A stretch of DNA of 55,295 nucleotides from an uncultured virus (IMG/VR IMGVR_UViG_3300037047_000119) (IMGVR_UViG_3300037047_000119), one strand, 5' to 3'; positions 995-55,100 are shown, counted from the first letter of the stretch. Notes: a model not told the origin generated them from the sequence alone. Made by a program: numbers and translations.

Positions 995-2037
995 CCCGTG
1001 TTGACCTGTTGGAGTACTGTTTCCTCGGTTGCGGGATGCCAGAGTCGTAACATTTTGTGGACGGTGCCAAGCTTCTTGATGCAATCTAAAAGATGCCGTT
1101 TTGCATCCCCAGATTTGATTTCAGATTCGGAGTATCGAACCACCGAGTACCCGAGATCAAAATACCCCCGAGCGGTATCTATGTCCGCGGCCACTCTCAG
1201 ACCGGGGTCCCCAAAAATGTACCGTGGCCCGTGAAATGCCTCCCCATCGCAAAGCACGACTACCTTACGTCCATCCCCCAAAGAGATCTTGATGTCGGCC
1301 TCTCGGGGTACTAGACATCCACGCACTGGGACACTCTGCCACTTGTTGTACTCCATAGGGAGTGCAAACCCACTTTGTACCAGATCGTCACTAAACCGTC
1401 TCTCCAACTGTGAACCGTGTTTTAGCTTGCTTAGGCGAGCAGCTTTTTCCTCTGGGGAAAGAGCTGCCCACACTTCATGCGCCCGCTTGGCCATTCTGAT
1501 AGTTCTGGCTCGAATCCTCTGCCTGCTATCCGTTCGGTACTCGTCCTCTCCCAAAGCATCGACCAAAATCCCCCGGTAAACCTTGTAGGTGATTCCCAAA
1601 TCCTGCATAACGGTGGAAACTTTTCGGCCCTCTAAAAAAGCACCCAGAACTGAAAGATATAAGCTATCCCCCTTTTCCCAGTGTACGTTCCGATCGGTAA
1701 GACCATCCCACTGGGATTTGGAACCTGAGGCCATCATTTTTCGGGGGTCATCCAGGATATTTGGATGCCATGCCTCATATTTTCTTTTGCTCATAGTCTG
1801 TCGAAAATCTTCGCACCTTGGACACCGCTTACTGTCTTTGAGATCAATATCCGTGATCTCCCAAAGACTCCCGCATTTACGACATCTCAGTGTAGCACGA
1901 TAGGAGTCCTTCCATTCCTGCCATCGAGACTTTAGTTCTGCATGATCGGGATCGTTATGAAAACGAAAATGCTGGCTCAACGCCACGTAATTCCGAACCA
2001 ATCGACCACAAACCTCACAGGCACCCAAAAACTGCAT
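991..2037 (-). CDS. Free-standing homing-type endonuclease: N-terminal Zn fingers, C-terminal Vsr/DUF559-like domain
   Basis: CEVC..H..H, CRKC, CPRC; C-terminal SQLE...ADI...LCDGEAFHG...VVRYSESE. Confidence 0.7.
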   Translation of the reverse strand: MQFLGACEVCGRLVRNYVALSQHFRFHNDPDHAELKSRWQEWKDSYRATLRCRKCGSLWEITDIDLKDSKRCPRCEDFRQTMSKRKYEAWHPNILDDPRKMMASGSKSQWDGLTDRNVHWEKGDSLYLSVLGAFLEGRKVSTVMQDLGITYKVYRGILVDALGEDEYRTDSRQRIRARTIRMAKRAHEVWAALSPEEKAARLSKLKHGSQLERRFSDDLVQSGFALPMEYNKWQSVPVRGCLVPREADIKISLGDGRKVVVLCDGEAFHGPRYIFGDPGLRVAADIDTARGYFDLGYSVVRYSESEIKSGDAKRHLLDCIKKLGTVHKMLRLWHPATEETVLQQVNTG

Positions 2038-3490
2038 GACCCACCCCCCACAACAATGGGAGGAGGAAAGGAAGAATACCGTAATTGATATTCTCCCAGA
2101 CCGGAGTTCGTCCGCGCTGCTCTACGTCATCTGGTGTGTTTGCCTTCTCAGTCTCCATGGGGGACTGAGCGGAGGCACCCTCCGGATAGAGCGGACTCTC
2201 AGGCACGGCCCACTGCGGGGGAGTCAACCCACCGTCTACCGGCAGAGGCGGGTAGATCCTCTGGCTGTATCGGGTCTGCGGCCAGGGTAGACCAGAAGTC
2301 CCGTCAATCGGAATGTCGTACCGGATGTCCTGCTCATCGAGGTACGCGATGTTGAAATGTTGCTGCAGTCGGTTTCCGCGGTTCGAAGGTCGTCGCACGG
2401 GACCGATAGAGTATCTCTCGTTCGTTTCTTTCACGATGAAATCCCGCTGCGTGACAACGGGAGATGGTCCCATCCAAACCTCGTAGGTGTGCTCTTTCCT
2501 TCGACCCGTGACGCCTTGTGAGATCCGACGCTCGGCATCGTCTGGAGCGACGATGACGTCGTAAGGCCCCTCGTACCCCCCCACAAATCCGCTTCCATAG
2601 CAATCCCGGCACCGGGAGGAGGGCTGTTTGCTGTACTCCCGGATCCGAGCGTCGATCCCACAAGAGCATGGGATACCGGACTGTTTTCGGATGAAAACTT
2701 TAACCCGTTCTCCTCCTTGTTGAAGGATCCACTGGTTCCTTCTTACGGCTTCCCGCCAGATGTAGTCCATCGTCTCAACATCGTTCATTGTCAAAACGGG
2801 ACAGTACTCAAGCGGTGTTTCTCGGTAGCCACTAGGAGTCGAGGCATCCAGTACAACGGTGGTCAGTCGATAGAACAGGTTGGAGTCTAATCCACTACGG
2901 ACGTGGTTCCGATTTGTCCAATACGAAATCTCGACTTGCGTGGTCGAGGTCGGAAGGTAAGGCCCCTCGAATTTCTCCGTGGCCTGATTAAAAGAGGGTT
3001 GATTGATCAGAGTTACCTGACCATTTGGCCCAAACACGTCATGAACCGGAACAACCACGCCATCGATGTACAACACAACATCAGAAGGTGAGTTTCCCGC
3101 AGTGGCCGTCTGATAGGGGCCACCAGGGAATCGTTTAGAGATGGGCATCCGAGTACGGAACATCCACTTGAGATCATTGGGGGCATCCCCCTTGTAAACC
3201 CACGATGTGTTCCAGTCCACAAGTTCTTTGATGATCTGGACGTTCTCGGTGCGGTCCCGGAAAAAGGTGCCTCCCAGAGGATACTCGTTGATCCGGTGGT
3301 ACGGGCCTCGGTCAGAGACATCCGACCGATAAACATTCACCCCCACGACCGTGAATGCGGAGTTGCCCGCAAGCAGGGCGGGACTGTCCCACCGAACGTC
3401 CTGTACACCCCGCTGGTACGTGGTGACTACTTGCCCGTTCTGAGGGGGGAGGGGGATAGTGGATGCACTGGGATCCCAGCCGTGGGACAT
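2015..3490 (-). CDS. Probable neck/head-closure protein with FN3-like N-terminus and Cys-rich insert
   Basis: GVNVYRS (FN3-like); ILQQGGERVKVFIRK..CSC..CRDCYGSGFVGGY; DFIV..NERYSI; late-gene context. Confidence 0.6.
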   Translation of the reverse strand: MSHGWDPSASTIPLPPQNGQVVTTYQRGVQDVRWDSPALLAGNSAFTVVGVNVYRSDVSDRGPYHRINEYPLGGTFFRDRTENVQIIKELVDWNTSWVYKGDAPNDLKWMFRTRMPISKRFPGGPYQTATAGNSPSDVVLYIDGVVVPVHDVFGPNGQVTLINQPSFNQATEKFEGPYLPTSTTQVEISYWTNRNHVRSGLDSNLFYRLTTVVLDASTPSGYRETPLEYCPVLTMNDVETMDYIWREAVRRNQWILQQGGERVKVFIRKQSGIPCSCGIDARIREYSKQPSSRCRDCYGSGFVGGYEGPYDVIVAPDDAERRISQGVTGRRKEHTYEVWMGPSPVVTQRDFIVKETNERYSIGPVRRPSNRGNRLQQHFNIAYLDEQDIRYDIPIDGTSGLPWPQTRYSQRIYPPLPVDGGLTPPQWAVPESPLYPEGASAQSPMETEKANTPDDVEQRGRTPVWENINYGILPFLLPLLWGVGHAVFGCL

Positions 3491-21852: not shown

Positions 21853-22318
21853 CACTACAAAAGGGGGAACAGTACCGAGTGCAACGGTCAGACAAACATA
21901 CTTACTCATAAACAATCTTTCAGACTCTGAGTTAGCCTTTCTAGGGGGGTTATTTAAAGAGGTGGCACAGTCGGAGTGGCCTCCAGGAAACGTTCCTGTG
22001 ACACTCTTTGGATCTAGCCCAGAACCCGAGGAAAACTCCGCTGTTCTCGGCGGAGGAGCTAAGGTGGGAATTCATGTGGGTTTCAAACCCAACACTTGTG
22101 AACTCAAAAAAGCTTTTTCACAAAAACCTTCCGACCTGGAGACACTTTATTCAACACTTCCTTCCCTTGAGGCACAAGGATTTGCACTCCGCCCCTCTGG
22201 CGGATTTTGTTTTGATGATCTGGGGCATTTAACGGTAATCAACCGGAAAAAGGCAACTGAAGCGGGGCAACTAAGGTGGCCCCGCCCACTAGAACCTGAA
22301 ACTACGGATCATCCCTGA
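21845..22318 (+). CDS. Hypothetical protein (start uncertain)
   Basis: Overlaps upstream gene. Confidence 0.55.
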   Translation: MGDTTKGGTVPSATVRQTYLLINNLSDSELAFLGGLFKEVAQSEWPPGNVPVTLFGSSPEPEENSAVLGGGAKVGIHVGFKPNTCELKKAFSQKPSDLETLYSTLPSLEAQGFALRPSGGFCFDDLGHLTVINRKKATEAGQLRWPRPLEPETTDHP

Positions 22319-23748
22319 CCCACAAACATCAGGATCCTCTCCCGAGTCCCTTCCGGATCAGCCTTGACCTCGGACTCCCATAGGACGAGACAGTCGATGC
22401 CGATGTCCCGAAAAGCGTTGATCAGTTCCTGCTCATGGTCAAAGGGCGACTTTCCCGTTCGCATTCGGGAGTGCCAGAAATCCCCAAACGTTTCAACCAC
22501 CTTATGAACAGACCGGCGAGGGTGGTCTGGGTCCGAGCCCGGCACAATGAAATCTGGGTTTTTGAAGTGTCCCAGACTCGGAAGCCACCGCCAAAACTTG
22601 CCATCTCCGGTAAACATAAGCTCTGGAGCCATCTTAGCAACCTTTTGCTCCAGTCGATTGGGGCCTTTTCGTTTCATCCTTTGAAGATGGATGATTGCAT
22701 AGCCATGGATCTTCATAGGGTGAGATGGAATCCCATCCACTGGAATGGGTACCCCCGCCCTGAACAAACAGGATTTTGTGAACTGAGCGGTACCTATAAA
22801 ATGCTTGTAGCCATGTCGCTGAAGCATGGTTTTTTCGAGCTTGGCCAGAAAAGTGGAGCACCGAAGAGGGTGTGCAACACCGTACCTTGCCTGGAATGCG
22901 GCCTTAGCCTTGTCCCAATGCCCCACCATTGCCCCCGGAAACTCCACCCCATACCGTTCGAGCATGGTCTCGCGGATAGCCGCCTTGCCCTCCTCTGACG
23001 CGAAATAGTGCGCCCCCCAGTGTAACTCCATCGTCTCCAGTTGTTTCTTGCGAACCTCCGGATCCATCGCTGTCCAGGGAACCCCAAAACGTTCCATGTT
23101 CGTGGCCTGTTGTTTTACCAGCACCTCCGGACTACATGACGGTGCGGGACCACCATAGCGTTCCTCACAAGTTGCTCGAATACGTGCCCGAATCTCCGGT
23201 GCCGCAAGAGTCTCCTCCACCCCATACCGAGCTTTGTTCGTTGCCCTGGTTCGCTGACGCACCTCAGGTAACTGGGTTGGACCCACAACCCCAAGGGCCT
23301 CCCAGTGGACTCGAATTCTCTGTTTCACATCTGATCGAGAGAAAGGATTGTCCTCACCCCGCATGATCGGACGTTTTCCGTCAAGGGATTTCTGCACCCT
23401 GTCAAAGGTGGAGGATTCCCGGCTAAACACACTCCGAGCCCCATATCGCTCCAGATTCGTTTGGGCACATTTCTCCCTTACCGAGGGAGCCTGAGTCACA
23501 GTCTCCACCCCGTACTTCTGCAGACACGTTTTTCTCTTTCGGGACTCCCTTACAGTCTTCCCGTCACGAGTGTTCCAGATGGCACAATCTTTCCTGTGCC
23601 GTTTCATCTGTGTTAAACTGGTGGACTCGTGACCACAGAGACAGGGTAAAACCTTAGGGGAGGACTCAGGATGACATTTGGAAAGGTGCCTTGAATTGAC
23701 TCGATCTCCAGGAAACGCACGTCCACAAAACTGACATGTAACTGGCAT
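22309..23748 (-). CDS. Free-standing homing-type endonuclease: Zn fingers, about 10 E[RK]YG-type repeats, Vsr/DUF559-like domain
   Basis: AAGGAGG RBS before ATG 23748; LQKYGV, LERYGA, KARYGV, EERYGG, MERFGV...; NPDF...VVETFGDFWH...LVLWESE. Confidence 0.75.
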   Translation of the reverse strand: MPVTCQFCGRAFPGDRVNSRHLSKCHPESSPKVLPCLCGHESTSLTQMKRHRKDCAIWNTRDGKTVRESRKRKTCLQKYGVETVTQAPSVREKCAQTNLERYGARSVFSRESSTFDRVQKSLDGKRPIMRGEDNPFSRSDVKQRIRVHWEALGVVGPTQLPEVRQRTRATNKARYGVEETLAAPEIRARIRATCEERYGGPAPSCSPEVLVKQQATNMERFGVPWTAMDPEVRKKQLETMELHWGAHYFASEEGKAAIRETMLERYGVEFPGAMVGHWDKAKAAFQARYGVAHPLRCSTFLAKLEKTMLQRHGYKHFIGTAQFTKSCLFRAGVPIPVDGIPSHPMKIHGYAIIHLQRMKRKGPNRLEQKVAKMAPELMFTGDGKFWRWLPSLGHFKNPDFIVPGSDPDHPRRSVHKVVETFGDFWHSRMRTGKSPFDHEQELINAFRDIGIDCLVLWESEVKADPEGTRERILMFVGQG

Positions 23749-23771
23749 GTGTATCCTCCTTTTCGAGTGCA

Positions 23772-23799
23772 AGGATACACAAAAAGAGCCCTAAGTCAA
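23772..23799 (-). promoter_or_regulatory. sigma70-like promoter TTGACT-N16-TATCCT for the endonuclease gene
   Basis: Near-consensus -35 and -10, directly upstream of the RBS. Confidence 0.4.
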
Positions 23800-23816
23800 C
23801 AAGGTTACGGAAAACC

Positions 23817-24707
23817 TCACACGAAGTTACGAGGGGAAAGCACGCCACGACCTGTGAACGGTCCGAAGGCACTTCGTACCCCCATCCCGAATCTGGGCTG
23901 CTGCAATCCACGGATAAAATGTACAGTACGTGCCTTAGCTTCTGTTCCTTTGTCGAACATAGATTCGGCGTTCTGTTTGAGTGACTCGTACTTGCTTGAC
24001 TTCTCGATGGTGAGACTGACTCCTCCGATGGAGTAGTCGAACTCGTCTGCGACCCAGTTGATGGCTAGTGCGAAACATGCGTGGGCGATAGCGCCCCAGA
24101 GGATAGCTGTTCGCCATGTGGGCATGGTGTTGACCAGTTTGTCGACGGTGTCGATGGTGTTGGTCAGTGGGGGGAACATGTTGAACCAGTCGAGGGCACG
24201 CTCGACGTACTCCAGCAATTCCGCGTCTTCCCAGATTTGACCGAACACACGATTGTATCGTCCGATTGAACCTTCGTGCTCGGGTGGTCTGAAATGGTAG
24301 TGCTTATCTGGGCAGTTGTGGACAACAACGCCACTCTGATGCAACACTAGATTATGGTTATCCGCTACCGTCAAGTCGTACATGTACTGGCGGCTTGGGA
24401 GTTTTAGGGCCCCGATCATGCGGGTGTCGGCGGGATGCCGTTTGAGCCGTCGGCCCCTGTTTTGAGCCGTAACCTCGGCGTCCTCAGTTTCTTGGTTTCC
24501 AACATAAATCCTGTGACTGCCTGTTACGACTAATGTTTGACCTCCAACAGTAATTAACTGCCAGATGTTTTCCCATGGAACTTCGTTGCGATGCACATCC
24601 AATATGGGTTTCCACTCGAAAACACCCTCAGCGTTCATAGACCTAATTTGGAGTCGGCCTGCTTTGAAAGCTGTTTTTAGACGTTCACGCTGCTGATCAG
24701 AGAGCAT
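23817..24707 (-). CDS. C-terminal half of fractured neck/adaptor-type protein: IntC (131 aa) + C-extein (165 aa)
   Basis: AAGGAG RBS, ATG 24707; VTGSHRIY, MYDLTV, VVHN|C; extein FDYSIGGVSL resembles head-tail adaptors. Confidence 0.85.
   Translation of the reverse strand: MLSDQQRERLKTAFKAGRLQIRSMNAEGVFEWKPILDVHRNEVPWENIWQLITVGGQTLVVTGSHRIYVGNQETEDAEVTAQNRGRRLKRHPADTRMIGALKLPSRQYMYDLTVADNHNLVLHQSGVVVHNCPDKHYHFRPPEHEGSIGRYNRVFGQIWEDAELLEYVERALDWFNMFPPLTNTIDTVDKLVNTMPTWRTAILWGAIAHACFALAINWVADEFDYSIGGVSLTIEKSSKYESLKQNAESMFDKGTEAKARTVHFIRGLQQPRFGMGVRSAFGPFTGRGVLSPRNFV
24315..24707 (-). mobile_element. Split intein C-fragment (contains block B TxxH and blocks F, G)
   Basis: TGSH; YDLTV.DNHN; terminal His-Asn followed by Cys+1 at 24314-24312. 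Confidence 0.88.
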
Positions 24708-25605
24708 CTGCCAACTCCTTTTCTGTCCAAACTGCAAAACCCCAACCTTCTGTTTTAGCCACTTTCTCCGCTTCCGCCAGACGTAACCTGACGTGAGAGT
24801 CCAAGGGCTGAGAGAACACCCAACTAGCTTTGACTTCGACGAGGCAAAGATGCCCATCCGTATACTGGATCAAAAAATCGGGCAGAATCCATCGACCGTC
24901 AGCGCACTCAACTCTATGCTCATGTTCATAAATGAGAACAGTTGGGTCTGACTCCAATAGTCGGATAGCTGCCACCTCGTAAGAGGAGCGAGCCCACACC
25001 CGCAGTTTCGTACCTTTGGGAGTTTCAACCCATTGGCTTCTGCCTCTCAAGTAAGTGATCGGGTTTTCCATCATCCTTATGGTTTGTGCCCGGGATCGAC
25101 GAACCCGTTCCTCTAAACTGCGGTGGAAATCCAGGAGTCGTCCTCGGAATACCGTGTCCGCCCACAAAGCTAAACTATGTCGACTAGCATTAGACCTACG
25201 CTCAGGGTTCCATGCTGCCCGGAGTTTGGCTTTCTCTGCCTCGGCGCGCTTCCTCCCCCGGTGGAAATCAAAAACACCGTCCCGCCACTGTTTCTCAAGC
25301 TGACCGGGTCGTTTCTTACCCCTCCAAGAAGCTCCTACCTTGCGGCCAATCTCTTTTAACGTCTTCCTAGACTCGGGGTTCCACATTGCTTGGGTTAGTC
25401 TTTGGATGGCACCATTCGAAAGTCCTGTAACCCGAAACATCTCTTCCCATTGCATACCGGAGGAGTGGAGTTCCGTTACAATTGCGGATCTCTTCTCCCG
25501 AACACCAGCAGGGGGTCGACCCTTCTTTGAAAAAGTAACCCAGTCGATGTCGTATTTCTCCAACAGGGGGAGGAGTTGTGGGTGCGGATTACTACTGAAG
25601 TTCAT
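24697..25605 (-). CDS. Free-standing TnsA-like PD-(D/E)xK endonuclease between the split-intein halves
   Basis: ARSSYE; YEHE; ILPDFLIQY.DG..CLVEVKA; F.VWTE; N-terminal HTH and basic NUMOD-like segments. Confidence 0.8.
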   Translation of the reverse strand: MNFSSNPHPQLLPLLEKYDIDWVTFSKKGRPPAGVREKRSAIVTELHSSGMQWEEMFRVTGLSNGAIQRLTQAMWNPESRKTLKEIGRKVGASWRGKKRPGQLEKQWRDGVFDFHRGRKRAEAEKAKLRAAWNPERRSNASRHSLALWADTVFRGRLLDFHRSLEERVRRSRAQTIRMMENPITYLRGRSQWVETPKGTKLRVWARSSYEVAAIRLLESDPTVLIYEHEHRVECADGRWILPDFLIQYTDGHLCLVEVKASWVFSQPLDSHVRLRLAEAEKVAKTEGWGFAVWTEKELADAL

Positions 25606-26092
25606 CTTTCAAGGTCTCCCACAAGTCATCCATTCTTACCACCATTCGTTCCCCATCAACATCAAGCTCGACCGTCTCTTCCCCCCCAATACAATGGTCT
25701 CGAAGTAGCATCCTCAACTTGCTGATCATCTGCCACTGAGCGGGACCGTACGTTACTACGTTGATGGACTCTGGGGTAACGACCTGGAACTCCTGTACGA
25801 CCTGGGTTAGGGGCTGGGTGATATACTCCCGGAAATACCACCGGATCCGATAAGTGCCCAGGGTTGCGGACGGGGGGATCTGGAGGGCAGCGTAGTACTC
25901 TCCCATCTGTGGGTTGACGGGTGTCCGCTGGGCGGCTCCGATGAGGACCTCGACCTCGGGTGGGCCTGGGTCGACGTAAAACAGGGCAAAATAGATCTCG
26001 GCTGCGTTGGTGGGCTGCCCTTGGGAGTCCACCAGGAAGATGTCGAGATCTCCGCGCCCGAGGGTTTGACCAGGACTGTAGTTCACGGCCAT
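25592..26092 (-). CDS. N-terminal half of fractured neck/adaptor-type protein: N-extein (133 aa) + IntN (33 aa)
   Basis: Ig/BppU-like N-domain (GEYYA..IP..A..G.YRIRW); ends LRDH|CIGGEETVEL... Confidence 0.85.
   Translation of the reverse strand: MAVNYSPGQTLGRGDLDIFLVDSQGQPTNAAEIYFALFYVDPGPPEVEVLIGAAQRTPVNPQMGEYYAALQIPPSATLGTYRIRWYFREYITQPLTQVVQEFQVVTPESINVVTYGPAQWQMISKLRMLLRDHCIGGEETVELDVDGERMVVRMDDLWETLKDELQ
25595..25693 (-). mobile_element. Split intein N-fragment, 33 aa
   Basis: Block A CIGGEETV followed by V.MDDLW, then stop. Confidence 0.8.
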
Positions 26093-26104
26093 GACGAGAT
26101 CCCC

Positions 26105-26957: not shown

Positions 26958-27011
26958 GAGAACCTCTCCATTGTTTCCGCCCCGGAAAGGGGGAGTTCCA
27001 CCTCAGGTGAG

Positions 27012-27025
27012 GTATAGACGGAACA
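27012..27025 (-). promoter_or_regulatory. Putative late promoter motif (TGTTCCGTCTATAC)
   Basis: Recurring 14-mer. Confidence 0.55.
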
Positions 27026-27074
27026 TTGAGAGGATACCGGAGTGAGGGCTGGATAGGATTACAGGAGGGCTAGC

Positions 27075-34757: not shown

Positions 34758-35288
34758 TTATAGGCCAGTTTGCACACCGAGGAAATAACTGTTGGAGACT
34801 TTAGGCACCTGCGAGACGAAGCCGGTGAAAAAGTTGGGGGCATGGGGGAGACCGGCCAGCGTTGCCTCGTCTTCTTTCGTCCACCATCCTCTGGCTGAAA
34901 AGTAAAGAATGTCGTTAGGCTGGTAAACAATGGGAACCAAAGGACCTGCTTGCCGACTTGCCCATGTGTACTTTTCATAGGTAGATGTGGAAATCAGACT
35001 CCCCCCAAATAACAGCGTAGCAAAACGATAGGTGACTTGACTGGACGTCTGAGCCGTTAACTGATCCGCATCCTCATCCGAACCCCAAAGCAAAAAGCCC
35101 CCGAAACGACCGTCAGAGAAAGTAACAGTGCGCTCATCATCAAACCCTGCGGCCCAACGAACTCCCTGCCCTCCCGGCCAGCCCTGCTGAAGCATCTCCG
35201 GGGCAACGGTTACCGTGGTTGCGTCCCCCTTGAAAAAAAGAAGGCAGTCGCGACCACGTACGATTTCCGTGATGAGTTTTTTGGCCAT
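34758..35288 (-). CDS. Cement/decoration-like paralog 3
   Basis: Shares RDC..F.GD, GW.G.QGVRW, YEKYTWASRQ.GPLV with the two upstream genes. Confidence 0.7.
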   Translation of the reverse strand: MAKKLITEIVRGRDCLLFFKGDATTVTVAPEMLQQGWPGGQGVRWAAGFDDERTVTFSDGRFGGFLLWGSDEDADQLTAQTSSQVTYRFATLLFGGSLISTSTYEKYTWASRQAGPLVPIVYQPNDILYFSARGWWTKEDEATLAGLPHAPNFFTGFVSQVPKVSNSYFLGVQTGL

Positions 35289-35289
35289 C

Positions 35290-35808
35290 TCAGATCGCCG
35301 TCTGCACAACTAGAAAAAAGTTGTTAGCCACCCTTGGAACCTGCACCACATAAGCCGTAAAAAAGTCATTTGGAGCACGAGGATCTCCGGAGAGAGTCCA
35401 CTCGTCTTCATTTGTCCACCACCCTCGATTACTCCACCGCAAACGTTCTCCTGTCTGATAGGATATCGGAACCAGAGGACCCATCTGACGACTTGCCCAT
35501 GTGTATCTCTCATAGGTGGACGTTGAAAGCACCCAACCCCCGGCACAGAAAATACCGTACCCTTCTGCAACTTGATTTCTGGTCATCCCCAGGTAACGAT
35601 CGGCGTCTTCATCCGAACCCCACAGAAGAAAACCCCCATAAAGCCCATCGGAGAACGATACCATGAACTCATCTTCCACTGAGTCCACCCACCGAACACC
35701 TTGCGCCCCGGGCCAACCTTGCACTAGCATCTCCGTATGTAGTGCCACAGGAAAAGAGTCTCCCCGGAAATGTGCCACACAATCTCGGGTGCGGAAAATC
35801 TCGGGCAT
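35290..35808 (-). CDS. Cement/decoration-like paralog 2
   Basis: Same conserved blocks; GAGG RBS. Confidence 0.7.
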   Translation of the reverse strand: MPEIFRTRDCVAHFRGDSFPVALHTEMLVQGWPGAQGVRWVDSVEDEFMVSFSDGLYGGFLLWGSDEDADRYLGMTRNQVAEGYGIFCAGGWVLSTSTYERYTWASRQMGPLVPISYQTGERLRWSNRGWWTNEDEWTLSGDPRAPNDFFTAYVVQVPRVANNFFLVVQTAI

Positions 35809-35817
35809 CTCAAAACC

Positions 35818-36336
35818 TCAAATCGATGTCTGAATCGTCATGAAAAAACCATTCTCGGCACAAGGACGCTGACTCACGTATCCTATGTAATAGTCATTTG
35901 GAGCCCGAGGGTCCCCGGAAAGAGTCCACTCATCCTCGGATGTCCAGAGTCCCCGGAGGCTAAAAACGAGCCGGTCACTCTCTTGGTAAGGAATCTCCAC
36001 CAGAGGACCCATCTGACGACTTGCCCATGTGTACTTTTCGTAGGAGGAAGTCATAATTAACCAACCCCCATAGCACAAGGTTGCAAAACGATAAAAAGGC
36101 TGGTTTCCAGAGATCCCCGTATATCCGTCCCCTTCCTCACTCGATCCTTTCAACAAAAAACCTGCGTACAGGCCATCCGACTGCGCGACCATGAAACGAT
36201 CTCCAGGATCGGACACCCACCGAACTCCTTGACCCCCTTGCCATCCCGTGCGAGCTAGAGAGGCATCAACTTCGCAGGTAAAAGCGTCACCTTTAAACAA
36301 AGTTACACATTCCCTGTTTCTCGGGGTGTCAGGCAA
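35818..36336 (-). CDS. Cement/decoration-like paralog 1
   Basis: AAGGAG RBS, TTG start; same blocks. Confidence 0.7.
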   Translation of the reverse strand: MPDTPRNRECVTLFKGDAFTCEVDASLARTGWQGGQGVRWVSDPGDRFMVAQSDGLYAGFLLKGSSEEGDGYTGISGNQPFYRFATLCYGGWLIMTSSYEKYTWASRQMGPLVEIPYQESDRLVFSLRGLWTSEDEWTLSGDPRAPNDYYIGYVSQRPCAENGFFMTIQTSI

Positions 36337-39942: not shown

Positions 39943-41553
39943 TTACTTGTTGCCGTTGAACACGGAGGAAACGTCCGGGGCGGACTCCCACAAGCGGCTC
40001 AGGTCGGCAATCTCGCCGTTGTTTCCGGCGGTAACCGTACCGACGGTACGGACACCCGGATTCGGGCGGCGGGGCTGCGGGCGCTGACCAGCGGTGCGGC
40101 TGGTACGTGCCTTTTTGTCCGTTTTCTCTTCCTCGACCACCTCGTCCTCTTCGGACTTCTTGGCGGCCTCTTTCTTTTCGGGCTCCTCAGCCTCGGGCTC
40201 CTCAGCCTCGGGCTCCTCAGCCTCGGGCTCCTCAGCCTCGGGCTCCTCTTCCTTCTCGTCGTCGTCCGCCTTCTTGGCTACGCGACCGCCGAAAATCTCC
40301 GCGAGAATGGAATCCTCGTCCGTCAGAGCAACAGGGTTACCTAGAGCATCCTCCTCGGCACCCAGCGAGAAGAGGGAAGCCTCTTCTACCTGCGGCTCTT
40401 CTGCCCTACGAGCGGCCTGCGGAGCGGGAACCGGCTCCGGAACCGGGGCGGGCTCCTCAGCGCGGCGACCTGCGACCTCAGTCTCCATCTCTGCGAGAAG
40501 GGCGACCTCTTCCGGATCCAGACCAACCATGTCACAGGACTTTTTGGCCGTCATCGCGTCGACGACTTCGTCCTCGGTCACGATGTCGTCCTCGTCCTCG
40601 TCCGCCGCGGCAAACACCGCAACCGGACCCAGCCACTCGGAACGAGAGACAAACCCGTCACCGTCGGTGTCCATGCTGGCGAAAAAAGCGCGAGCAGCCT
40701 TCGCGGCAGCAGTCTTGACTTCCTGCTTGTCCGTGGTTGCCTCGGCCTCCTGCCGTACCTGTTCCTCCGTCTTCGGGCTCGGAGCCAGGGTGTCACCCTT
40801 CGGATCGTTCTGATCCGCACGGCGGCCCGCCGCGGCCTTCATCGCGACGATCTCGTCCTGAAGGGCCTGCACCTTCATCATCAGATCGTCGACCTCCGCC
40901 CGTCGAGAAGCCTCGGGAGCAGGAGCCTCAACCGGCATCTCTTCCTCTGCGAGAAGAGCGTCCAGTTCGTCGTCGCCCATGAACATCGGGTCGTCATCGA
41001 CCGGGGGCATAAACTCGTCATCGACCGGAGGAAGGAACTCGTCCTCTACCGGAAACGAGTCGAACTCGTCCTCGACGAACATGTCCTGGGCGAGAAAACC
41101 ACCACCCAAGCGGTTGGCCGTTGCGGTGATGTGGCTATCCGGCCAATCCATCATCGAGAATGCCTGATCCTCGATCATTTCAGCCGTGACACCGCGGCGA
41201 CCCTTCAGCATCAGTGCCGCCAGCCGCAGGCACCGATCAGCCTTCGCCTCGGCCATCGACTCGATCGCCGCACGGAGGCTACGGGCCTCCTTCGGGACAC
41301 GCGGCGGATTCTCATGCGCCGGGTGATCCTGGTCCTCGGTGTCGTAACCGGGGACAGCCGGAGGATTTCCCTGTGGATACGGTGGCGGGTTGGGAGTCTC
41401 CGCCCATGCATCCGGGTCACCCTTCTTGTACGTCTCGTAGGAGGGATCGGGCTGATGTGCCGGATGATCCTGATCCTCAGTTCCGTACCCAGGGTTGGCG
41501 GGAGGAGCAGACGCCTCGCGGCCCGCCGCCCACGTCAGTCGGTCTCGTCTCAT
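39943..41553 (-). CDS. Capsid scaffolding protein, 536 aa, with an EF-hand pair
   Basis: AAGGAG RBS, ATGA overlap with protease; acidic low complexity and coiled coil; DTDGDGFVSRSEW and DEDEDDIVTEDEV. Confidence 0.75.
   Translation of the reverse strand: MRRDRLTWAAGREASAPPANPGYGTEDQDHPAHQPDPSYETYKKGDPDAWAETPNPPPYPQGNPPAVPGYDTEDQDHPAHENPPRVPKEARSLRAAIESMAEAKADRCLRLAALMLKGRRGVTAEMIEDQAFSMMDWPDSHITATANRLGGGFLAQDMFVEDEFDSFPVEDEFLPPVDDEFMPPVDDDPMFMGDDELDALLAEEEMPVEAPAPEASRRAEVDDLMMKVQALQDEIVAMKAAAGRRADQNDPKGDTLAPSPKTEEQVRQEAEATTDKQEVKTAAAKAARAFFASMDTDGDGFVSRSEWLGPVAVFAAADEDEDDIVTEDEVVDAMTAKKSCDMVGLDPEEVALLAEMETEVAGRRAEEPAPVPEPVPAPQAARRAEEPQVEEASLFSLGAEEDALGNPVALTDEDSILAEIFGGRVAKKADDDEKEEEPEAEEPEAEEPEAEEPEAEEPEKKEAAKKSEEDEVVEEEKTDKKARTSRTAGQRPQPRRPNPGVRTVGTVTAGNNGEIADLSRLWESAPDVSSVFNGNK
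40178..40248. repeat. 15-bp perfect tandem repeat x4.7 (EPEAE) in the scaffold
   Basis: Unit TCGGGCTCCTCAGCC. Confidence 0.9.
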
Positions 41554-44324
41554 TTCTGAACTCCTTCGTGGCGACTGCCAGTCACTCGCACCGAAGCCTC
41601 TCTCCGGTGGAGCATTCTTCCAAGGTGCAGCAGAATTGTCCTCTCCTGCACAGTGGGGGTTTTCCCTAGTACCGAAACACACGCGTTGCGGTACTTATCT
41701 GCGGACCCGTACCGTGCCGGGTTCCCTACATGAAGAGCAACTCGGTACAGATGGACAGGGATTCTAACCCCCACCTGATCGTTATACGCTGCAACACCAT
41801 CAATGAGTGCAGCATCCGAGCTAGCAGTTCTGAGAATCGAACTCAGTCCCGCAAGGTAAAGCCTACGAAAAGCCGATGCCTGTTTCACCAGACTCTCGTT
41901 TGTAGACTCCGTGGGCGTCCGACCCGGGACACCCTCTACCGGAACCGTGATCTCTTTCCGGATGCGGCTTTTGACCTGCTCAACCACTGTCCGGTAGATC
42001 TCATCCTCAACATCTTGAAGAGGCCGCTTAGGCTCTTCCGGGGCCGGAGCCGACTCTTCTGAGGGGGGCTCGTCTCCACCCCCCTCATCCAACCAACCGG
42101 CGGAAAACTCCGGAGGACCCTCCACCACAAAAGCGGAACGGGCAGGAAACTCTATCTCGCGAACAACGGAGGCGGCTTTCGCATATGCATCTTGGGTCCA
42201 CTCGGGCGGCGGGCTGGCAAGAATTTTCTGTGCCTGCCGGACGGTCTTCTCCGTGGGGTCCAGGATGTTGCGTGCGACGGCACCTGTGAATGCCGGGGTT
42301 TCAACCCAAGACGCCTCAATGAATGTCACGCCACCAGTTGGGTCGAGTGAATCGTGTCCACACAGTTCCGCGATCCGGTGACGTTGCCCCTGCTCATCGA
42401 AAAAGATGTTACCCTTCTCATAGCGGATGTGAGGGCACATCTCAGTCTCGTCGGCGGCCCAATGTCCACACTTCGTGCAGATCGTGCCATCGACGGTGCA
42501 ATTTGCAACAGAAACGCCCTCAACGATGTAAGTGTGGTCCTCATCCACCTCCATATTGTGGACGTCACCCTCGTAAACGCTCTCCTCAATAGCTGTAATT
42601 GGACTAATTACCCAATCACTAAGGACACGATTGTTCTGGTTACTGTAACTAGAGACCAACGGGGCCTTGGCACAATAACCCTGCAACTCAATCGACTGTG
42701 TGTTCCCGAGAGTCAACAGATACGAGGGAAGTCGCCCCGTAGCCGCGTCGCGTACTGCAACACCACCATTAACAGCCTCTGCCACAGTGACTGAATTAGC
42801 CCCGATACGAGCCTCGAATCGGGCAAACCAACCACACTTTGCCATCAGGGCATGCATCTGACATGCTAGATCCAAGGACACGGTAGTCCCCACCAGAAAC
42901 CCACCATGTGCCTTTGCCCGATGTCCATCCCCATTAAGCCACGTGCCGATCAGGTGTTTGTGGTTCTCTAGTGACCAGTTCATGACCTCAGTAGACAAAC
43001 GTTTACCGTGACTGTATTCCCCTCCGTGCTGAAGGAACCATGCAGTAACACTGCCTCCCGTAACATGCACTGTACAGGTGTTTCTATCGAGACGATCCTG
43101 AACCCAGGGGATGTTCGCTTCCGGGAATTCTTGCTTAAGGAGCCCCACGACTTCGGCCACAAATGTGTTCTTCTCAGATGCAGCAAAATTAAACTGCACT
43201 TCGCAGTGCTTACCTTTGTGCTTAAGGAAACTACCTTCGGCGAGGAAATAGCCCAGCAACCGGGCTTTGCCCTCGGTCGTCTCAATTGTATGCTCCCCAT
43301 CCTTCACTCTGGGAAAAGCAACAAAATCCCCAACCCGAAGCTCGTCTGCCCGAACCTTTATCAACTCAGGGTTCTGGATTTCGTCCATCAGCGCCTTCCG
43401 GCGCTTGAACTCATCCATTGAGTACGTGTTATTCGGATTCAGGATGCGCTTGTCATGCCCTTGCAAGAAACTACGTGTCGTCGGCTTCCTCTCCGAGGGA
43501 GCGTAAACAGGTAGACTCTCACCGCACCCACAAGCGCACACCTCGGCTGGGCGCAAAACATAATAGGGATGGTTCGCTGTCGAAAATATAGGGGATGCAA
43601 GCCCGACGGCATGAACCGTCCGCATATCCCATTTACCGCCCCGGATCTGTTTGTTCAACACCTCACGAGCACGGCCCTTATGGGTCAACACCATATCCCC
43701 GGGTTGTACGTCCTCAATGGCAATACGCCGCCCGTCCGCCATCGTGACGTGTGTCCCAGGCAGAAAACATCCCATAGACAAGGTTCCCATCTTGCCACTT
43801 TCAATGGCTTTGACGAGATCTGCATGTTTGCGATCCGTGGCAATCAGGATGTCAACATAGATTGAGTCCCCAATGTCTCGGGCAGCGGCATCGATGATGC
43901 GACCCTTTGACAAATCCTCAAGCTGAACGTGCTCCACGAAGTTGTGTCCGCCAATGAAAGTGCGGAACGCCTTGAGAAGCACCCCACGAGACCAAGCGTC
44001 CTGATTGTTGTTGATATACTTCTGAGTCTCAGGGGTCACCCGGAAGTCTGAGAATTTCCGATTGACATTGAACCCATTTTCAACAACCGATCCCGTCTTG
44101 ACTCCCGCGGGAGAGAAAACATCCACTGATGCCACGATGGTGGCATGTGTGAGAAGATACTTGCCAGGATCAAAGCTACCACCCAGGAACTGAGAGGCTC
44201 GCTCAACGAGATCCTCCCGGATGTTCCCGGCAGCCTTCGATGCCGCCGTCTTGATCTTCCCCCACTGGGCATTCGTCACATGCGGGTGGACGACTTTCGC
44301 TGTGGCAAATCTCAGAAATGCCAT
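41550..44324 (-). CDS. Prohead (maturation) protease, HK97/herpes-assemblin-like, with intein
   Basis: NNNQDAW; NFVEH; GRIIDA; LSMG|intein|C..CTKCG..CPH; FIEASWVETPA; position before scaffold. Confidence 0.85.
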   Translation of the reverse strand: MAFLRFATAKVVHPHVTNAQWGKIKTAASKAAGNIREDLVERASQFLGGSFDPGKYLLTHATIVASVDVFSPAGVKTGSVVENGFNVNRKFSDFRVTPETQKYINNNQDAWSRGVLLKAFRTFIGGHNFVEHVQLEDLSKGRIIDAAARDIGDSIYVDILIATDRKHADLVKAIESGKMGTLSMGCFLPGTHVTMADGRRIAIEDVQPGDMVLTHKGRAREVLNKQIRGGKWDMRTVHAVGLASPIFSTANHPYYVLRPAEVCACGCGESLPVYAPSERKPTTRSFLQGHDKRILNPNNTYSMDEFKRRKALMDEIQNPELIKVRADELRVGDFVAFPRVKDGEHTIETTEGKARLLGYFLAEGSFLKHKGKHCEVQFNFAASEKNTFVAEVVGLLKQEFPEANIPWVQDRLDRNTCTVHVTGGSVTAWFLQHGGEYSHGKRLSTEVMNWSLENHKHLIGTWLNGDGHRAKAHGGFLVGTTVSLDLACQMHALMAKCGWFARFEARIGANSVTVAEAVNGGVAVRDAATGRLPSYLLTLGNTQSIELQGYCAKAPLVSSYSNQNNRVLSDWVISPITAIEESVYEGDVHNMEVDEDHTYIVEGVSVANCTVDGTICTKCGHWAADETEMCPHIRYEKGNIFFDEQGQRHRIAELCGHDSLDPTGGVTFIEASWVETPAFTGAVARNILDPTEKTVRQAQKILASPPPEWTQDAYAKAASVVREIEFPARSAFVVEGPPEFSAGWLDEGGGDEPPSEESAPAPEEPKRPLQDVEDEIYRTVVEQVKSRIRKEITVPVEGVPGRTPTESTNESLVKQASAFRRLYLAGLSSILRTASSDAALIDGVAAYNDQVGVRIPVHLYRVALHVGNPARYGSADKYRNACVSVLGKTPTVQERTILLHLGRMLHRREASVRVTGSRHEGVQK
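42501..43769 (-). mobile_element. Intein (423 aa) with LAGLIDADG endonuclease
   Basis: CFLPGT.V.MADG; TANHPY; LLGYFLAEG; LIGTWLNGDG; VHNMEV.EDHTY; ends VAN|C. Confidence 0.92.
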
Positions 44325-50043: not shown

Positions 50044-52166
50044 TTCTGGATGTGGGTTTCCAGCTCACTTTTCATCTGGATCAAAGCCCGATGTTCTTGC
50101 TCGATCTGACGAGTGTACAAGACATAGTAGTCGCGCCAGTTGCGCATGGCCAATGTGTCTGACCCGTCAGGCTTAATGAGAGGACTTCCCGGTCGTCGCG
50201 AGTTTGGGATCTCAGTGATCTCCCCACGCTCCAACTGACCCTGAGTCTTCACGATCCAATCCAGATGTGGGAGGATCACCTGACTGAGATACTCCTGTGT
50301 GCCCTTGGAACTGACCTCGAAGGGCTGATAACTCACACCGAAACACGGCCCAGAGTGCCAGGAGTATCCATACCCCCCCCTAGCCCGTTCTCCCTGAACC
50401 GTCCACCCGTGCCGCATGATGTGCCCACGTACCAGCTTCACATTCGAGAAACACGCCGGACAGGTACCCGTATTGTCCAACGTCCGATCCGTGATCGGAC
50501 GAGTCAAATCGGAAACGGCCTCCTCCCCCATCTGATCAAGGTGCTTCTGTGCCAGTTCCTTCAGCCCATTCTTGTACGCCCACGTTAGAAACGCCGCAGG
50601 CTGCATCTTGTGGAGGTCCTCGATGCGTCCTCTGTCATCCACACGCATCGGGAAAGAGGGGGATTCTCCCTGGGGGGTATGTACCTGGAAAGAGGGAACA
50701 CCCATCCACCAGCCTTGTGTTTTGATCGACGGCCGATTGGTGTAGGAACTGATGAAAGGACTACCGATCTGTCCCACATACAACAGACCTACCGGAGGAC
50801 TATCAGGAGGACTCCCCTCCTTGAGTGGGAATTCCCGTCGGCCGATTGCAGCCTCAGCCTCAGACCGAAACCAAAAATGAACGGGCTCTTTGACTCCCGC
50901 GTAACCCCAGGTCTCAGCATTGTGCTCCTTGAGCCAATCCTTCAACACACGGGCAATGATGTCGTCGTTGCCCAACTGACGAGCGGCGGTGCTCTCCGTC
51001 ACCGACCACCCGATCAGGGCTAGGGCCTCCCGCAACAGGTCGATGTCATACGTCCCTGTTTTCCCCTGTCCCTTCGCGAAAACCTGGAGGAGCTTGAGCG
51101 CGGGTGATGCCACCGCGGCCCGCAACCAACGAGATGCCAGTTTCGACGCGGTCGGAGAAATCCGATGCCGAGTCGTTTGTGGTTCATTCCAAACTTTCTC
51201 CTCCTGGAACCGAATGTTCTGTTTCCGCTGCAAACCCTGAAACAGGGGCTCTCCGCCGTCTTGCGTCCGGAGATTCGACCCATAGAAAGGAAGCCCCATG
51301 TAGGCCATCCAACGCGCCCCAAAACGCAGGAGCGCCGCCCCTACCCCTGACCGGCGCTCCGCCGGTTCAGTGCAGATGAAATCAACCATAGGCTTGTCGA
51401 TGTGATATTTCTTGTAACTCTCAAACTTCTCCAAATAGGGTTGCGCCATCTGGAGAAGTTCTTCTGACCGCTGTCGAGGTGGGGGAGCATCCTCCGGTTT
51501 GTATTCCCTTCCCCACAACAACCATTTGGCCTTCGACCACAGTTCATTGAGGTCCCGTTTTTCTGCGGGCTCCAACAACCCCCAACGCCCCCCAACCCGT
51601 GCAAGCCAGTGCCAAATGGTCGGGAATTTTTTGAGAAATCGTTCCTTGGGGATGTATGAAATCTTGAGATAACCTACCTGCTTACCCTCTATGTAAGCCT
51701 CGACCGTGTGTACTACAAACCCTTTGTCCGATGGTCCTCTGTCTCTCGGATCGTCCTCGAACGTCTTGAACGTGATCTCGCGTCCGTCTTTGGTGAGGTA
51801 CTCGTCGGAACTAGCACGTGCCGTCTTCTGCACTCGCTGCCCGCAGTTGGGGCAGAACGCGGCACTCCCCGGGACCACCGTTCCGCAGCCCGGACACGGG
51901 CGAGTCACCTTCTCGGGTTCCCCGAACTGGAGGACGATCCAGTAGGGCCCCTTCCCGTACGTCCCGATCCCGTGGTACTTGAACCGACCGTTCTGCCACT
52001 TCCAGTCGTGGCCCTCGTGCTCGGACCGGATGTTGTGCGTACCGAACGAGGTCGTCGGAGTGGGGGTGCCCCGCCCGAACCAGTAATAGACCACGTCGGG
52101 CTTTTCGGGCATCGGGAAACCCCGTACCAGCCCTTGAAATGGATGCACCTCATATCGGGATTTCAT
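49953..52166 (-). CDS. Polyvalent cargo protein: Zn ribbon, GNAT, tag, Cys/His domain
   Basis: CPGCG..CPNCG; QKTARAS; CTEPAERRSGVGAALL; ASKLASRWLRAA; GTCPAC..HGW..H..PC.G. Confidence 0.75.
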   Translation of the reverse strand: MKSRYEVHPFQGLVRGFPMPEKPDVVYYWFGRGTPTPTTSFGTHNIRSEHEGHDWKWQNGRFKYHGIGTYGKGPYWIVLQFGEPEKVTRPCPGCGTVVPGSAAFCPNCGQRVQKTARASSDEYLTKDGREITFKTFEDDPRDRGPSDKGFVVHTVEAYIEGKQVGYLKISYIPKERFLKKFPTIWHWLARVGGRWGLLEPAEKRDLNELWSKAKWLLWGREYKPEDAPPPRQRSEELLQMAQPYLEKFESYKKYHIDKPMVDFICTEPAERRSGVGAALLRFGARWMAYMGLPFYGSNLRTQDGGEPLFQGLQRKQNIRFQEEKVWNEPQTTRHRISPTASKLASRWLRAAVASPALKLLQVFAKGQGKTGTYDIDLLREALALIGWSVTESTAARQLGNDDIIARVLKDWLKEHNAETWGYAGVKEPVHFWFRSEAEAAIGRREFPLKEGSPPDSPPVGLLYVGQIGSPFISSYTNRPSIKTQGWWMGVPSFQVHTPQGESPSFPMRVDDRGRIEDLHKMQPAAFLTWAYKNGLKELAQKHLDQMGEEAVSDLTRPITDRTLDNTGTCPACFSNVKLVRGHIMRHGWTVQGERARGGYGYSWHSGPCFGVSYQPFEVSSKGTQEYLSQVILPHLDWIVKTQGQLERGEITEIPNSRRPGSPLIKPDGSDTLAMRNWRDYYVLYTRQIEQEHRALIQMKSELETHIQKWKPMPLPGDRVRGRQARMGGFFTCSPRNH
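49977..49983 (-). other. Candidate -1 slippery site T_TTT_TTT
   Basis: GGT TTT TTT ACG in frame of 49953..52166; a -1 shift enters 48886..50043. Confidence 0.45.
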
Positions 52167-55100
52167 CTGTCTACCTTATGCCAACGCAGAATTTTGAGCA
52201 GGGACAAATCCATCACGGCGATACTCTCATCCCGAACTGATCGTTCATAGAACCTAAATATGGTGTAACCATAAGGGGAAGCTTCCCGAATGATATCAGG
52301 AGCCTCTTCATAGGGGATGCGTTTATCCGTGGGATCAGGATTCGACCCCATTACACGGAGTCGGATCTCTTCCGCTAATGGATCCTGATAGGGGTTGAAA
52401 ATCTTACCCTTTTGGAAATCGACTGCCACCTCGGCAAGCCACCCTCCCCGAGGACCTTCTGAAATATACTCCGCCTGAGTTTTCCGTCCCTTCGGCTGAC
52501 TGAGATAGATGGCATGATGACGGCCGGGTCGAAAACGGTCAAACCTCTCTGATGTGCCATGTAAGAACACCCCAGGAGGCCATGTATTTGCTTCCCTCCG
52601 AAGCGCTGGATTTCTATACATCCCAGCGGAGAGCGAAAAATCTACATGCCGACCTTTATTTTCAACGAACCCAAACCGCTTGTAGAACTGAACCAGACGG
52701 GATCTGCTGGTCGTACCCTTTCGGTCATCCCGCAACGCGGGACTAAGCACGACTCGAGCACCCTGTTGATCCGCGAACCGGCATAGGAGGGACATGGCCT
52801 CCGTTCCTACACCCTGTTTGCGGGCGGCCTTGCCTACCACTAACAGGTTAAGCTGGATGTCCCCCTGCTGAGTCAGGTACAGGTCAAAGGACTCCAGACC
52901 CAGGTCTTGCTCTACTTGCTCCCCGAAAGATCGGACGGCCGCCGCGGAAACCGACGCCGTCTTGCCCCGTTTCATCCCCTCCTCCACGAGAGGGACCCAA
53001 ACGGGGTAACGGTGCCGCACGTCCCCGTCGAGGAAATACGACGCGAAGCTATCCGCAAATGCCTCGTGCATGTTGCCGTTGCTGAAAGGCAATTGCGCCG
53101 TATCCCAAACGTCCACCCCGGCCGCTTCCGCAGCCGCTATGAACTGACGAAGTCCCCAGCGGTCGAGCACAGAGTGACCCACCTCATGGGTGAAAACGAA
53201 ATCCCGAGGATCCTCAGCGAGATTCCAGAACTTCGGATAGATCTCAATGCCCCGAGATGTGTAGCGTGCCTCGGGGTGGTTTCCGGCGCCCGGATGAGTC
53301 ACATGCCAAACACGGTCCCTCAAAAAGGGTCTAACCTTGGGGTGACGGCGGAGATACTCTTCAACCCAGGCATTCAACTCCGGGTCCCCAGAGTGATTCG
53401 AGGTCTTGGTACGTTTGTACTGGATGTCACCGGGGCCAGCGTCATAAGACTCGGCCTTGCCCGCTTGCTCCAGCTTCTCCCAGTAAGACCTGTTCTCGGG
53501 GGAGGTAATCATACCGGAACGGAAAGAGCCCCCATAGCGTGTGGCCCAGGCATACGCCGTGTCGTGCAGCAGTTTGGAGAGCCCCTGACGACGGAACAGG
53601 GGGTCTACATACACATTCCCGACATACCAGTAACCACCGTCTCTCGGAGAGGGTACCAGAATGAGATAACCCGCGTTCGCATCCTCTTTGGTGTTGGCTA
53701 AGAAAACGTATGCGCTGCTGTGCGTAGTGAATTGCCCGTTGTCAGGTTCCACCGTCACACGGAGATTGTTTCGCTCCACCAGTAACTTGGGGGTGGAACC
53801 CCGTTTGTCGAGCTTCGCATCTACCGTCCCATCCTTCAGGAAGTCATCCTCAAGTCCGGGGACAAGATACTGACTCTTCAAGGTCGCGGGCTCGTGTCCT
53901 ACCGCCTCCGCCGTTTCCTCCAGAGCCTTCTTGAACTCTTCCTTCAGCTTCTTTTCTCGCTCTTTCTTGTCCTCGGGCAGTTTGCCACCCTTGCCTCGGA
54001 CAGCTTTGAGCCGCGTCTGCATCTCCGTGTTGGCGTGGTAACCTCGGATGTCCTTCGCTGTGACATCGAACGGTTTCAAATACGCATTGACATCTTCCGC
54101 CTTCACACCACCGCAGATCTCGTCATTGTCCTTCTTGCCCTTGACGGCTTCCCTGAGTGCCGTCAAAGAACCGGGGGAATCGATCACCTTCTCATGCTTG
54201 ACTCCGGACTTACCCACGTACTTGATGGTGGCTTTGTCCTTCCCCAACGTGAGATGTTTGACTTTCCACCCGGTCACTCCGAAATGACCCTCTTTGGCGG
54301 ACTCATCGTTGCCCACCCGCTCATAGGTGGCATCCATGAGGCCAACCGCCAGAGCCACCATTCGAGTGTGCTCATCCTCTGACTTCAGATCCTTCTGCAC
54401 CTGCTTGCGCAAATCCTTGATGGTCTTTCGCAGCTTTTCGACACGTTCCGCCTTCTGCCGATTGCGGTTGGCGATCTGACGGTCGGAGTACTCGTAGACC
54501 GTCATCTCATCCCCGTCCTGGGTCTTGACGGTTTTCTTGTCCTTGTAACGCGCCGCTGCCGCTTGCAAATAGCGGACAGCGAGTCGTCTCGCCTTGAGAT
54601 ATCGTCCGTGCTCATCCATGTCGACTAAACCCCGGCTGTCAAACCTGTCCCACATCCGAGTAGAGTCAAAAGTCTGACTATGGGAAGCGTAAAAACGAAC
54701 TCCTCGTCGTGCCAACCATTGTTTAGCAAACAGGTAGAGTGCGGATGCCACACCTTGGCGCTGGAACTCTTCTTGTACCTCAGCCCAAGAGGGCCGAGCG
54801 AGACCAACATCCCGTCTCATATTGACGTATTTTTTCCGCCAGATATCCTCGTCTCCTGCTTCCTGTCCTATCAGTCTTGGATACTTGACAGCGAACACAT
54901 CGGCACTTGGGAATTCCTTGTCAAACCGTTTGGGATCCCAGAATCCCATCTCAAGTTCCCCTGCCGGATCCCCATCCACATCCACCCAGAACGTGATCTG
55001 CCTGAACCCCAGCTTGGTCAACTTGGGGTAAGGACGATTCTCCTGCACCCGAAACGTGATCCGTCGACCATCCTTGGTTGTAGTGGAGGCAAAGCGTTTT

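Follow-up and report, generated by a model that had tools for sequence, protein, structure and literature searches.

A probable split-intein cassette with a TnsA-fold endonuclease in the putative head-to-tail adaptor gene of a huge-phage clade

Fractured genes, as presented in the available text of Dassa et al. (2009; PMC2677866), consist of an N gene fused to IntN, a free-standing endonuclease gene, and a C gene fused to IntC, all on the same strand. The hosts given there are DNA or nucleotide enzymes, a terminase, and one protein of unknown function, and the nucleases are GIY-YIG or Vsr-like. Atypically split inteins have very unequal halves, with IntN/IntC lengths of 25/104 aa for AceL-TerL, 37/115 for GOS-TerL and 30/104 for Cat (excerpts of PMC11766414). 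Their S2 split site lies after helix 1, the IntN range is approximately 15–37 aa, and few natural short-IntN examples are named (AceL, GOS, VidaL and PolB16; excerpts of PMC13014065). Contiguous inteins are reported from the portal, minor capsid and tape measure proteins of actinobacteriophages (bioRxiv 10.1101/2025.01.02.630785, partial text).

The locus described here lies in a 55,295-nt stretch of DNA from an uncultured virus (IMG/VR IMGVR_UViG_3300037047_000119), referred to below as the window. It quite probably carries a split-intein cassette with a TnsA-fold endonuclease, inserted in the head-to-tail adaptor gene of a huge-phage clade, which would be undone by protein trans-splicing and spread by homing; splicing, cleavage and the virion role are all predictions. 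All features are on the minus strand, as follows.

25592..26092 (−): N gene, 166 aa, made up of a 133-aa N-extein and a 33-aa IntN whose first residue is Cys
25694..26092 (−): N-extein, 133 aa; Ig-like domain (approximately residues 1–107) and the first helix of an adaptor-like helical domain, based on a model of the uninterrupted allele L001
25592..25693 (−): IntN (33 aa) with its stop codon; carries Cys1 and block A; net charge −8 (11 D/E, 3 K/R)
25615..25620 (−): Shine-Dalgarno-like GGGAGA within the IntN codons, 9 nt before the nuclease ATG, read from the sequence
24697..25605 (−): free-standing endonuclease gene, 302 aa; helical N-terminal part and C-terminal TnsA-fold PD-(D/E)xK domain (residues 188–302)
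24715..24720 (−): C-gene Shine-Dalgarno AAGGAG, lying in the final conserved nuclease codons
23817..24707 (−): C gene, 296 aa, made up of a 131-aa IntC ending in His-Asn and a 165-aa C-extein starting with Cys
24315..24707 (−): IntC, 131 aa; block B Thr62/His65, block F Asp111, His130-Asn131
23817..24314 (−): C-extein, 165 aa plus stop; Cys+1 first, then the remainder of the adaptor-like domain, with a second and a third intein site empty here
23815..23834 (−): hairpin resembling a terminator where the C gene ends, a consensus match only

The coordinates, residue counts and overlaps of the initial annotation all held on recount, and its length for the joined exteins (298 aa) was reproduced. 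The N gene overlaps the nuclease gene by 14 nt, which in turn overlaps the C gene by 11 nt.

Apart from the order of the parts, the locus shares with the published fractured genes the overlap between the nuclease 3′ end and the C gene (6–69 bp there), a phage origin, and the existence of endonuclease-less derivatives; one published terminase also has an early split and a 122-aa C part. It differs in its host, a probable virion adaptor, in the TnsA fold of its nuclease, and in the overlap of the N gene with the nuclease, where the published loci have a spacer of 27–51 nt (all from the available text of PMC2677866). According to the same text, 15 of 16 fractured loci have a hairpin before the nuclease start, whereas none is found in the window (folding z of +1.8); among five relatives folded at this position, only L143 has a stable one (z of −2.5). 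With AceL, GOS and Cat, as described in part above, the locus shares a short IntN, a long IntC that holds block B and, in the window, Cys1/Cys+1, but the host here is not a terminase and the IntC is longer, with an extra helix-like opening segment. No TerL-named solved chain was matched by the IntC profile (E≤1) or the IntN profile (E≤10), so that no close kinship to TerL-type inteins is shown, although distant kinship is possible. The fractured-gene device is known; the new variations are the host protein, the TnsA-fold nuclease, and the life cycle seen in relatives. A literature search, with most subscription journals outside its scope, returned no split intein in an adaptor gene and no TnsA-fold nuclease in a fractured gene. 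The initial annotation had proposed a natural split intein in a virion structural protein as the novelty. This stands for the split form in the adaptor, but not for an intein in a structural protein as such, because contiguous ones are already in print; the actinobacteriophage inteins likewise have non-enzymatic virion hosts and a sporadic distribution, but the split example there is in a nucleotidyltransferase, and the term “head-to-tail” does not occur in the partial text (bioRxiv 10.1101/2025.01.02.630785).

In the ORF listing, the C gene begins at an ATG further upstream (24857). We place the start at the Met at 24707, which is conserved across 20 aligned IntC sequences (at least 90%) and is preceded by AAGGAG at a distance of 7 nt, bearing out the earlier claim that the C gene has its own ribosome-binding site; a Shine-Dalgarno-like motif, contained in the terminal conserved codons of the nuclease, precedes the C gene in 26 of the 29 split loci for which an ATG was found (30 examined). 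Terminator-like sites number 11, compared with 5.6±2.5 in shuffled sequences, and a promoter scan was at chance level (3 vs. 2.7). RNA-level splicing was considered and rejected, since there are no Rfam matches at E≤1 in positions 22000–27500 and the intein motifs render it unnecessary; no RNA data set carrying the locus was listed. Directly downstream of the C gene is a second free-standing nuclease gene (22309..23772, minus strand), which matches DUF7487 and homing endonuclease PHROGs, and similar genes are located 3′ of the adaptor gene in L001, L043, L138, L141 and L226.

No assembly error is evident in the split arrangement. One contig of a first sequencing run (X1, possibly the source) spans 23000–27000 with 0 differences, and short contigs from two other studies, also with 0 differences, cover 24088–24431 and 24444–24725 (X2) and 25623–25773 (X3), confirming the IntC start and the C-terminal and N-terminal junctions. 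The window comes from a large tailed phage, with genes for a major head protein (PHROG E 8e-48) and for a protein that matches head maturation proteases; relatives sit on contigs of up to 619 kb. The protease match is within a 924-aa ORF (41550..44324, minus strand) that also contains a contiguous intein of approximately 420 aa, with Hint matches from residue 186, an end near residue 606, and probably an internal endonuclease domain. Other genes of the window, all on the minus strand, include a long ORF in which a topoisomerase IB catalytic core is fused to two GNAT domains (52163..55294), three tandem paralogous genes of approximately 172–183 aa that adjoin the capsid module (34758..36336; no PHROG match for the two tested), and a 491-aa ORF (2015..3490) that weakly matches a virion-structural PHROG (E 0.056) and is possibly another neck component.

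The initial annotation had called for uninterrupted homologs of the joined exteins. C-extein scans gave 56 viral loci and 119 metagenome matches, of which the best 80 were taken, and a further 80 loci came from a nuclease profile and 32 from an IntC profile; single-sequence scans gave 1 locus for the N-extein and 0 for the nuclease. Among 252 loci plus the window, both exteins could be parsed in 161, corresponding to 116 distinct alleles; the loci left out are distant nucleases, other inteins and truncated contigs. The exteins form one uninterrupted ORF in 84 of the 116 alleles, and an intein is present at the same codon in the other 32, although searching with the intein itself has enriched the set for it; 15 of the 99 alleles recovered with the extein alone carry it. 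The initial annotation would have been refuted by exteins that match separate proteins in relatives; the continuous ORF of the 84 alleles speaks against this, and the empty alleles closest to the window are 76% (N) and 84% (C) identical to its exteins. Twenty-three of the 32 intein alleles, the window included, are split with an intact copy of the same nuclease. The remainder are split with a frameshifted nuclease (one, L047), with internal nuclease deletions (five) or with an HNH gene in place of the nuclease (one, L226), or are contiguous (two, L017 and L244). As in other fractured genes, a conserved host gene is present in two ordered parts on the same strand, with the intein halves in frame with both.

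Cys1, TxxH, the block-F Asp and the terminal Asn are present in all 32 intein alleles, so the motifs originally read from the window (block A, TxxH block B, block F and HN|C) correspond to invariant catalytic positions, and together with the +1 residue they place all 32 among class 1 inteins (Cys/Ser1, TxxH, Asp, Asn, Cys/Ser/Thr+1). The +1 residue is Ser (23) or Cys (9) in the intein alleles, while the 84 empty alleles have Asn (78), Ala (2), Arg (2), Asp (1) or Trp (1), and Cys, Ser or Thr in none. Because Ser and Cys occur only in occupied alleles, the occupied allele carries an altered host codon. The penultimate intein residue is more variable (Ser in 23, His in 5, Lys in 2 and Gly in 2), and is His in the window. 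All 30 split alleles have an IntN of 29–41 aa with a net charge of −5 to −9, and IntC, with its extra segment at the start, ranges from 124 to 152 aa. In the window, the 33-aa IntN appears from its sequence pattern to end after the predicted first helix, fitting the S2 position, and block B (Thr62/His65) is on IntC, as in the short-IntN class. The window IntC scores 30.3 bits with TIGR01443, for which the cut-off is 15.6, and solved inteins are matched by a 20-sequence IntC profile (best E 4e-9); the assignment is therefore not due to chance.

A model of the window IntN/IntC complex scored 0.94, compared with 0.02 for the best of three controls, with 100% agreement of contacts between runs, a partner pLDDT of at least 92, and a pLDDT of 94 for the modelled IntC. 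Of 157 solved complexes, 116 attain this mark, as do 2 of 215 mismatched pairs. The two halves may thus associate into one HINT domain, but since solved inteins exist, the pass may reflect likeness to them. The window intein is at most 52% identical to that of any relative, and IntC residues 66–105 (approximately) depart from the consensus and are more polar than those of the relatives. Intein and nuclease are under purifying selection in relatives: dN is far below dS in all 8 usable pairs (12 intein or nuclease pairs less 3 saturated and 1 second-site pair), for example 0.06/0.89 for IntN, 0.21/0.77 for IntC and 0.13/2.18 for the nuclease, with dS saturated in 4 of 14 pairs overall, including both window pairs. 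The most likely reading of these patterns is that unequal split-intein halves join two gene products into one protein by splicing.

The earlier description of the nuclease as TnsA-like was borne out by both sequence and fold. The TnsA-like Pfam model matches each of the 12 aligned copies, though weakly in most, and the structural model of residues 188–302 matches TnsA (1t0f_A) with a Z of 12.6 and an rmsd of 2.0 over 108 aligned residues; the next match has a Z of 7.8, and Vsr and I-Bth0305I score 6.7 and 6.4. D243, E257 and K259 are invariant in the 12 copies and form a canonical PD-(D/E)xK motif. A Vsr-like (EDxHD) homing endonuclease was therefore rejected, given this motif and the Z of 12.6 for TnsA vs. 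6.7 for Vsr. The nuclease also matches PHROG 218 (E 3.7e-8); a PDB sequence search with its profile gave nothing useful. Tn7 TnsA and the T4 gp4-type head completion nuclease share the catalytic fold and the PD-(D/E)xK motif (PMC7824862, in part), but the nuclease here has approximately 190 extra N-terminal residues, the helical part of which is probably DNA-binding, and its close relatives are confined to one intein site. The 7 best full-family matches of a nuclease scan are all in this site, while four further loci and one typical distant match are unrelated free genes or short head-completion-like nucleases; a profile search gave 46 representatives at E≤1e-30, for which no gene context was available. 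The extra N-terminal residues and this confinement point to a homing role, and not to transposition or packaging.

Nuclease deletions keep both ends of the gene (L051, L227 and L223), since the C gene draws its ribosome-binding site from the nuclease gene. L234 and L143 are identical at 1335 of 1344 nt, but L234 lacks 771 nt inside the nuclease gene. In L226 the HNH gene that replaces the TnsA-fold nuclease is located at 2172..3011. Two proteins, P0068 and P0038, look like chimeras of the TnsA-fold and HNH nuclease types.

Phage head-to-tail adaptors are typified by T4 gp13 and P22 gp4; they have a helical-bundle fold and form a ring beneath the portal. We modelled the uninterrupted homolog L001 from 79 sequences (pLDDT 77.5, pTM 0.51), and the model shows an Ig-like domain (residues 1–107) and a helical domain (residues 114–273), the latter being compared as part of the full model. 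Nine of the ten top structural matches to the helical domain are phage portal-tail or neck chains, although the titles name complexes and not chains. The best is 9k09_d (Z 10.7, rmsd 3.8, 111 aligned residues), and the T4 neck chain 9lu4_D also matches (Z 9.4, rmsd 4.5, 115 aligned residues); identity is 6–16%, and these Z values are below the level (approximately 13) under which, in helical bundles, the tool cautions that a match may represent a common arrangement. By sequence, the host matches a Tunturi_5 “head-tail connector protein” (the depositor's annotation; 30% identity over 94%, E 2e-29), and a connector PHROG with an E of 0.018. Fold and annotation thus lend moderate support to the original “neck” label, and the host protein is very probably a head-to-tail adaptor. 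Phage G gp165 is also matched (E 6e-4 by sequence and 1.7e-8 by fold); no published role was found for it, so the match was not used for function. Other searches were less informative: Pfam, PHROG and NCBIfam gave only PF23961 for the N half, below the cut-off (E 0.009), and nothing for the C-extein; a PDB sequence search with the host profile gave nothing useful; Foldseek against the PDB gave no row at E≤0.001, the rows being filled by Ig-like domains; and the Atlas gave only unnamed viral clusters, plus one BppU_N lead, in 10% of members. Within the helical domain, the intein site comes after the first helix (residues 115–128), and in the model the N gene would therefore supply part of the core, so that both pieces would be needed. 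Stand-alone genes resembling the Ig-like N-extein domain (approximately 25–32% identity) occur in L028, L030, L033, L141 and others, 0.4–5 kb upstream of the adaptor gene and within one sub-clade.

The distribution of the intein over the extein tree is close to random scatter, with 24 state changes compared with 28.2±1.8 after shuffling (14 of 500 shuffles gave 24 or fewer; FastTree); such counts give no direction of gain or loss. L055, which carries the intein, and L056, which is empty at the first site, are 98–99% identical over flanks of 4.6 and 5.0 kb, but only 80.6% identical between the two intein sites, the divergence beginning approximately 30 nt upstream of the first site. This tract looks like co-conversion, but could also result from ordinary recombination or have been driven by the second-site nuclease. 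In the intein tree, the contiguous L244 lies among split alleles (supports 99/99 and 99/88). Grouping the two contiguous copies L017 and L244 together is rejected (AU p 0.019), as is a clade of split alleles when second-site inteins serve as the outgroup (p 0.035, quick tree); these p-values are modest, the groups were picked after viewing the tree, and recombination could mislead. Re-fusion of the split halves is the simplest reading of these topologies. If both contiguous copies nest within the split lineage, splitting would be reversible here; the model in the available text of Dassa et al. (PMC2677866) has no step in which the halves re-fuse by losing the entire nuclease gene.

Relatives of the locus thus show nuclease deletion, HNH replacement, a co-conversion-like tract and a second split intein. 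Whether they represent an undescribed type of self-mobilising split intein with a TnsA-fold nuclease, which homes throughout the clade, installs its own +1 nucleophile, can un-split, and in six relatives leaves the gene in three pieces, is a proposal to which we give an even chance. In the preferred reading, which we hold to be quite probable, a mobile IntN–TnsA-fold endonuclease–IntC cassette would have inserted in the probable head-to-tail adaptor gene of a huge-phage clade, and the overlapping frames would be translated into three proteins. The acidic 33-aa IntN would dock into the 131-aa IntC to complete the HINT fold, and class 1 splicing through Cys1, TxxH, the block-F Asp, Asn and Cys+1 would join the 133-aa and 165-aa exteins into the 298-aa adaptor. 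The nuclease would most likely cut empty alleles near the site and so drive homing, and repair would copy the flanking codons, bringing in the +1 Cys or Ser that is absent from empty alleles.

Among other readings, the one with the most in its favour, though still unlikely, makes the nuclease a passenger that split the intein in the past without mobilising it, and attributes the patchy distribution to repeated loss. The nuclease is deleted or frameshifted in 6 of 32 alleles and replaced by HNH in 1, and the state-change counts cannot give direction; but a passenger fits poorly with the purifying selection on the nuclease (dN 0.13, dS 2.18), the location of the 7 best nuclease-scan matches in this one site, the co-conversion-like tract, and the lack of a Cys/Ser+1 scar in any of the 84 empty alleles. 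The split intein could also be real and its host another virion or assembly protein, which we regard as distinctly unlikely. Neither Foldseek (E≤0.001) nor a sequence search matched the host in the PDB, its N-terminal Ig-like domain resembles baseplate BppU-type domains, the genes next to it lack annotation, and 12 kb separate it from the major capsid gene; against this, the nine portal-tail or neck chains among the ten top fold matches align to the same residues, and there are the connector-annotated homolog and the weak connector PHROG.

That the family splices while the window copy is decaying or slow is suggested by the divergent polar IntC residues 66–105 (approximately), which are confirmed by two assemblies, and by the best identity of 52%. 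This is improbable, however, in view of the full set of catalytic residues, both ribosome-binding sites, the intact nuclease frame and the pLDDT of the modelled IntC (94), and because the adaptor gene looks single and conserved in the clade. Least probable, and by our estimate very much so, is that the intein halves merely clasp the adaptor pieces together without splicing, like the insertion-derived tails of the fragmented Aeh1 NrdA, which provide a precedent for non-splicing assembly (PMC3045599, in part). The site is at the start of a low-confidence loop (residues 140–155) that might tolerate an attached domain, and the penultimate His is absent in 27 of 32 alleles; but a clasp would need neither the four catalytic positions, invariant in 32 of 32, nor a +1 Cys/Ser that occurs only with the intein, and the window copy does have the penultimate His. 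Trans-splicing combined with homing is therefore the reading that we prefer, and under it phage assembly would require trans-splicing to produce a neck ring protein, the splicing and the virion role being predicted.

Short-IntN split inteins are wanted for protein semisynthesis, and the adaptor family adds 30 distinct split alleles at one site. The gene also displays most of the proposed stages of intein splitting, together with the apparent re-fusion, and with these stages side by side in one gene the Dassa model becomes directly testable. A second intein site, with Ser1/Ser+1, lies downstream in the same gene; it is split in 9 and contiguous in 2 of the 116 alleles, usually with a Vsr-like nuclease, and adds nine Ser1/Ser+1 split alleles. 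Six alleles (L046, L051, L223, L225, L233 and L236) are split at both sites and are thus three-piece genes. To judge from their sequences, these relatives would need two non-cross-reacting trans-splicing reactions to make the adaptor, and such naturally co-occurring pairs should be orthogonal.

A third intein site is present near the C terminus of the adaptor gene in L222 (3200..3739), where the intein is contiguous with Ser1/Ser+1. The second-site split intein of L056 (5493..6906), also Ser1/Ser+1, has no Cys in its 31-aa IntN or in its IntC as read from a probable GTG start; PolB16 is given as the only known natural cysteine-less atypically split intein in the available text of PMC13014065. 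In its IntC, the second-site intein of L056 shares 99% identity with the contiguous copy of L055.
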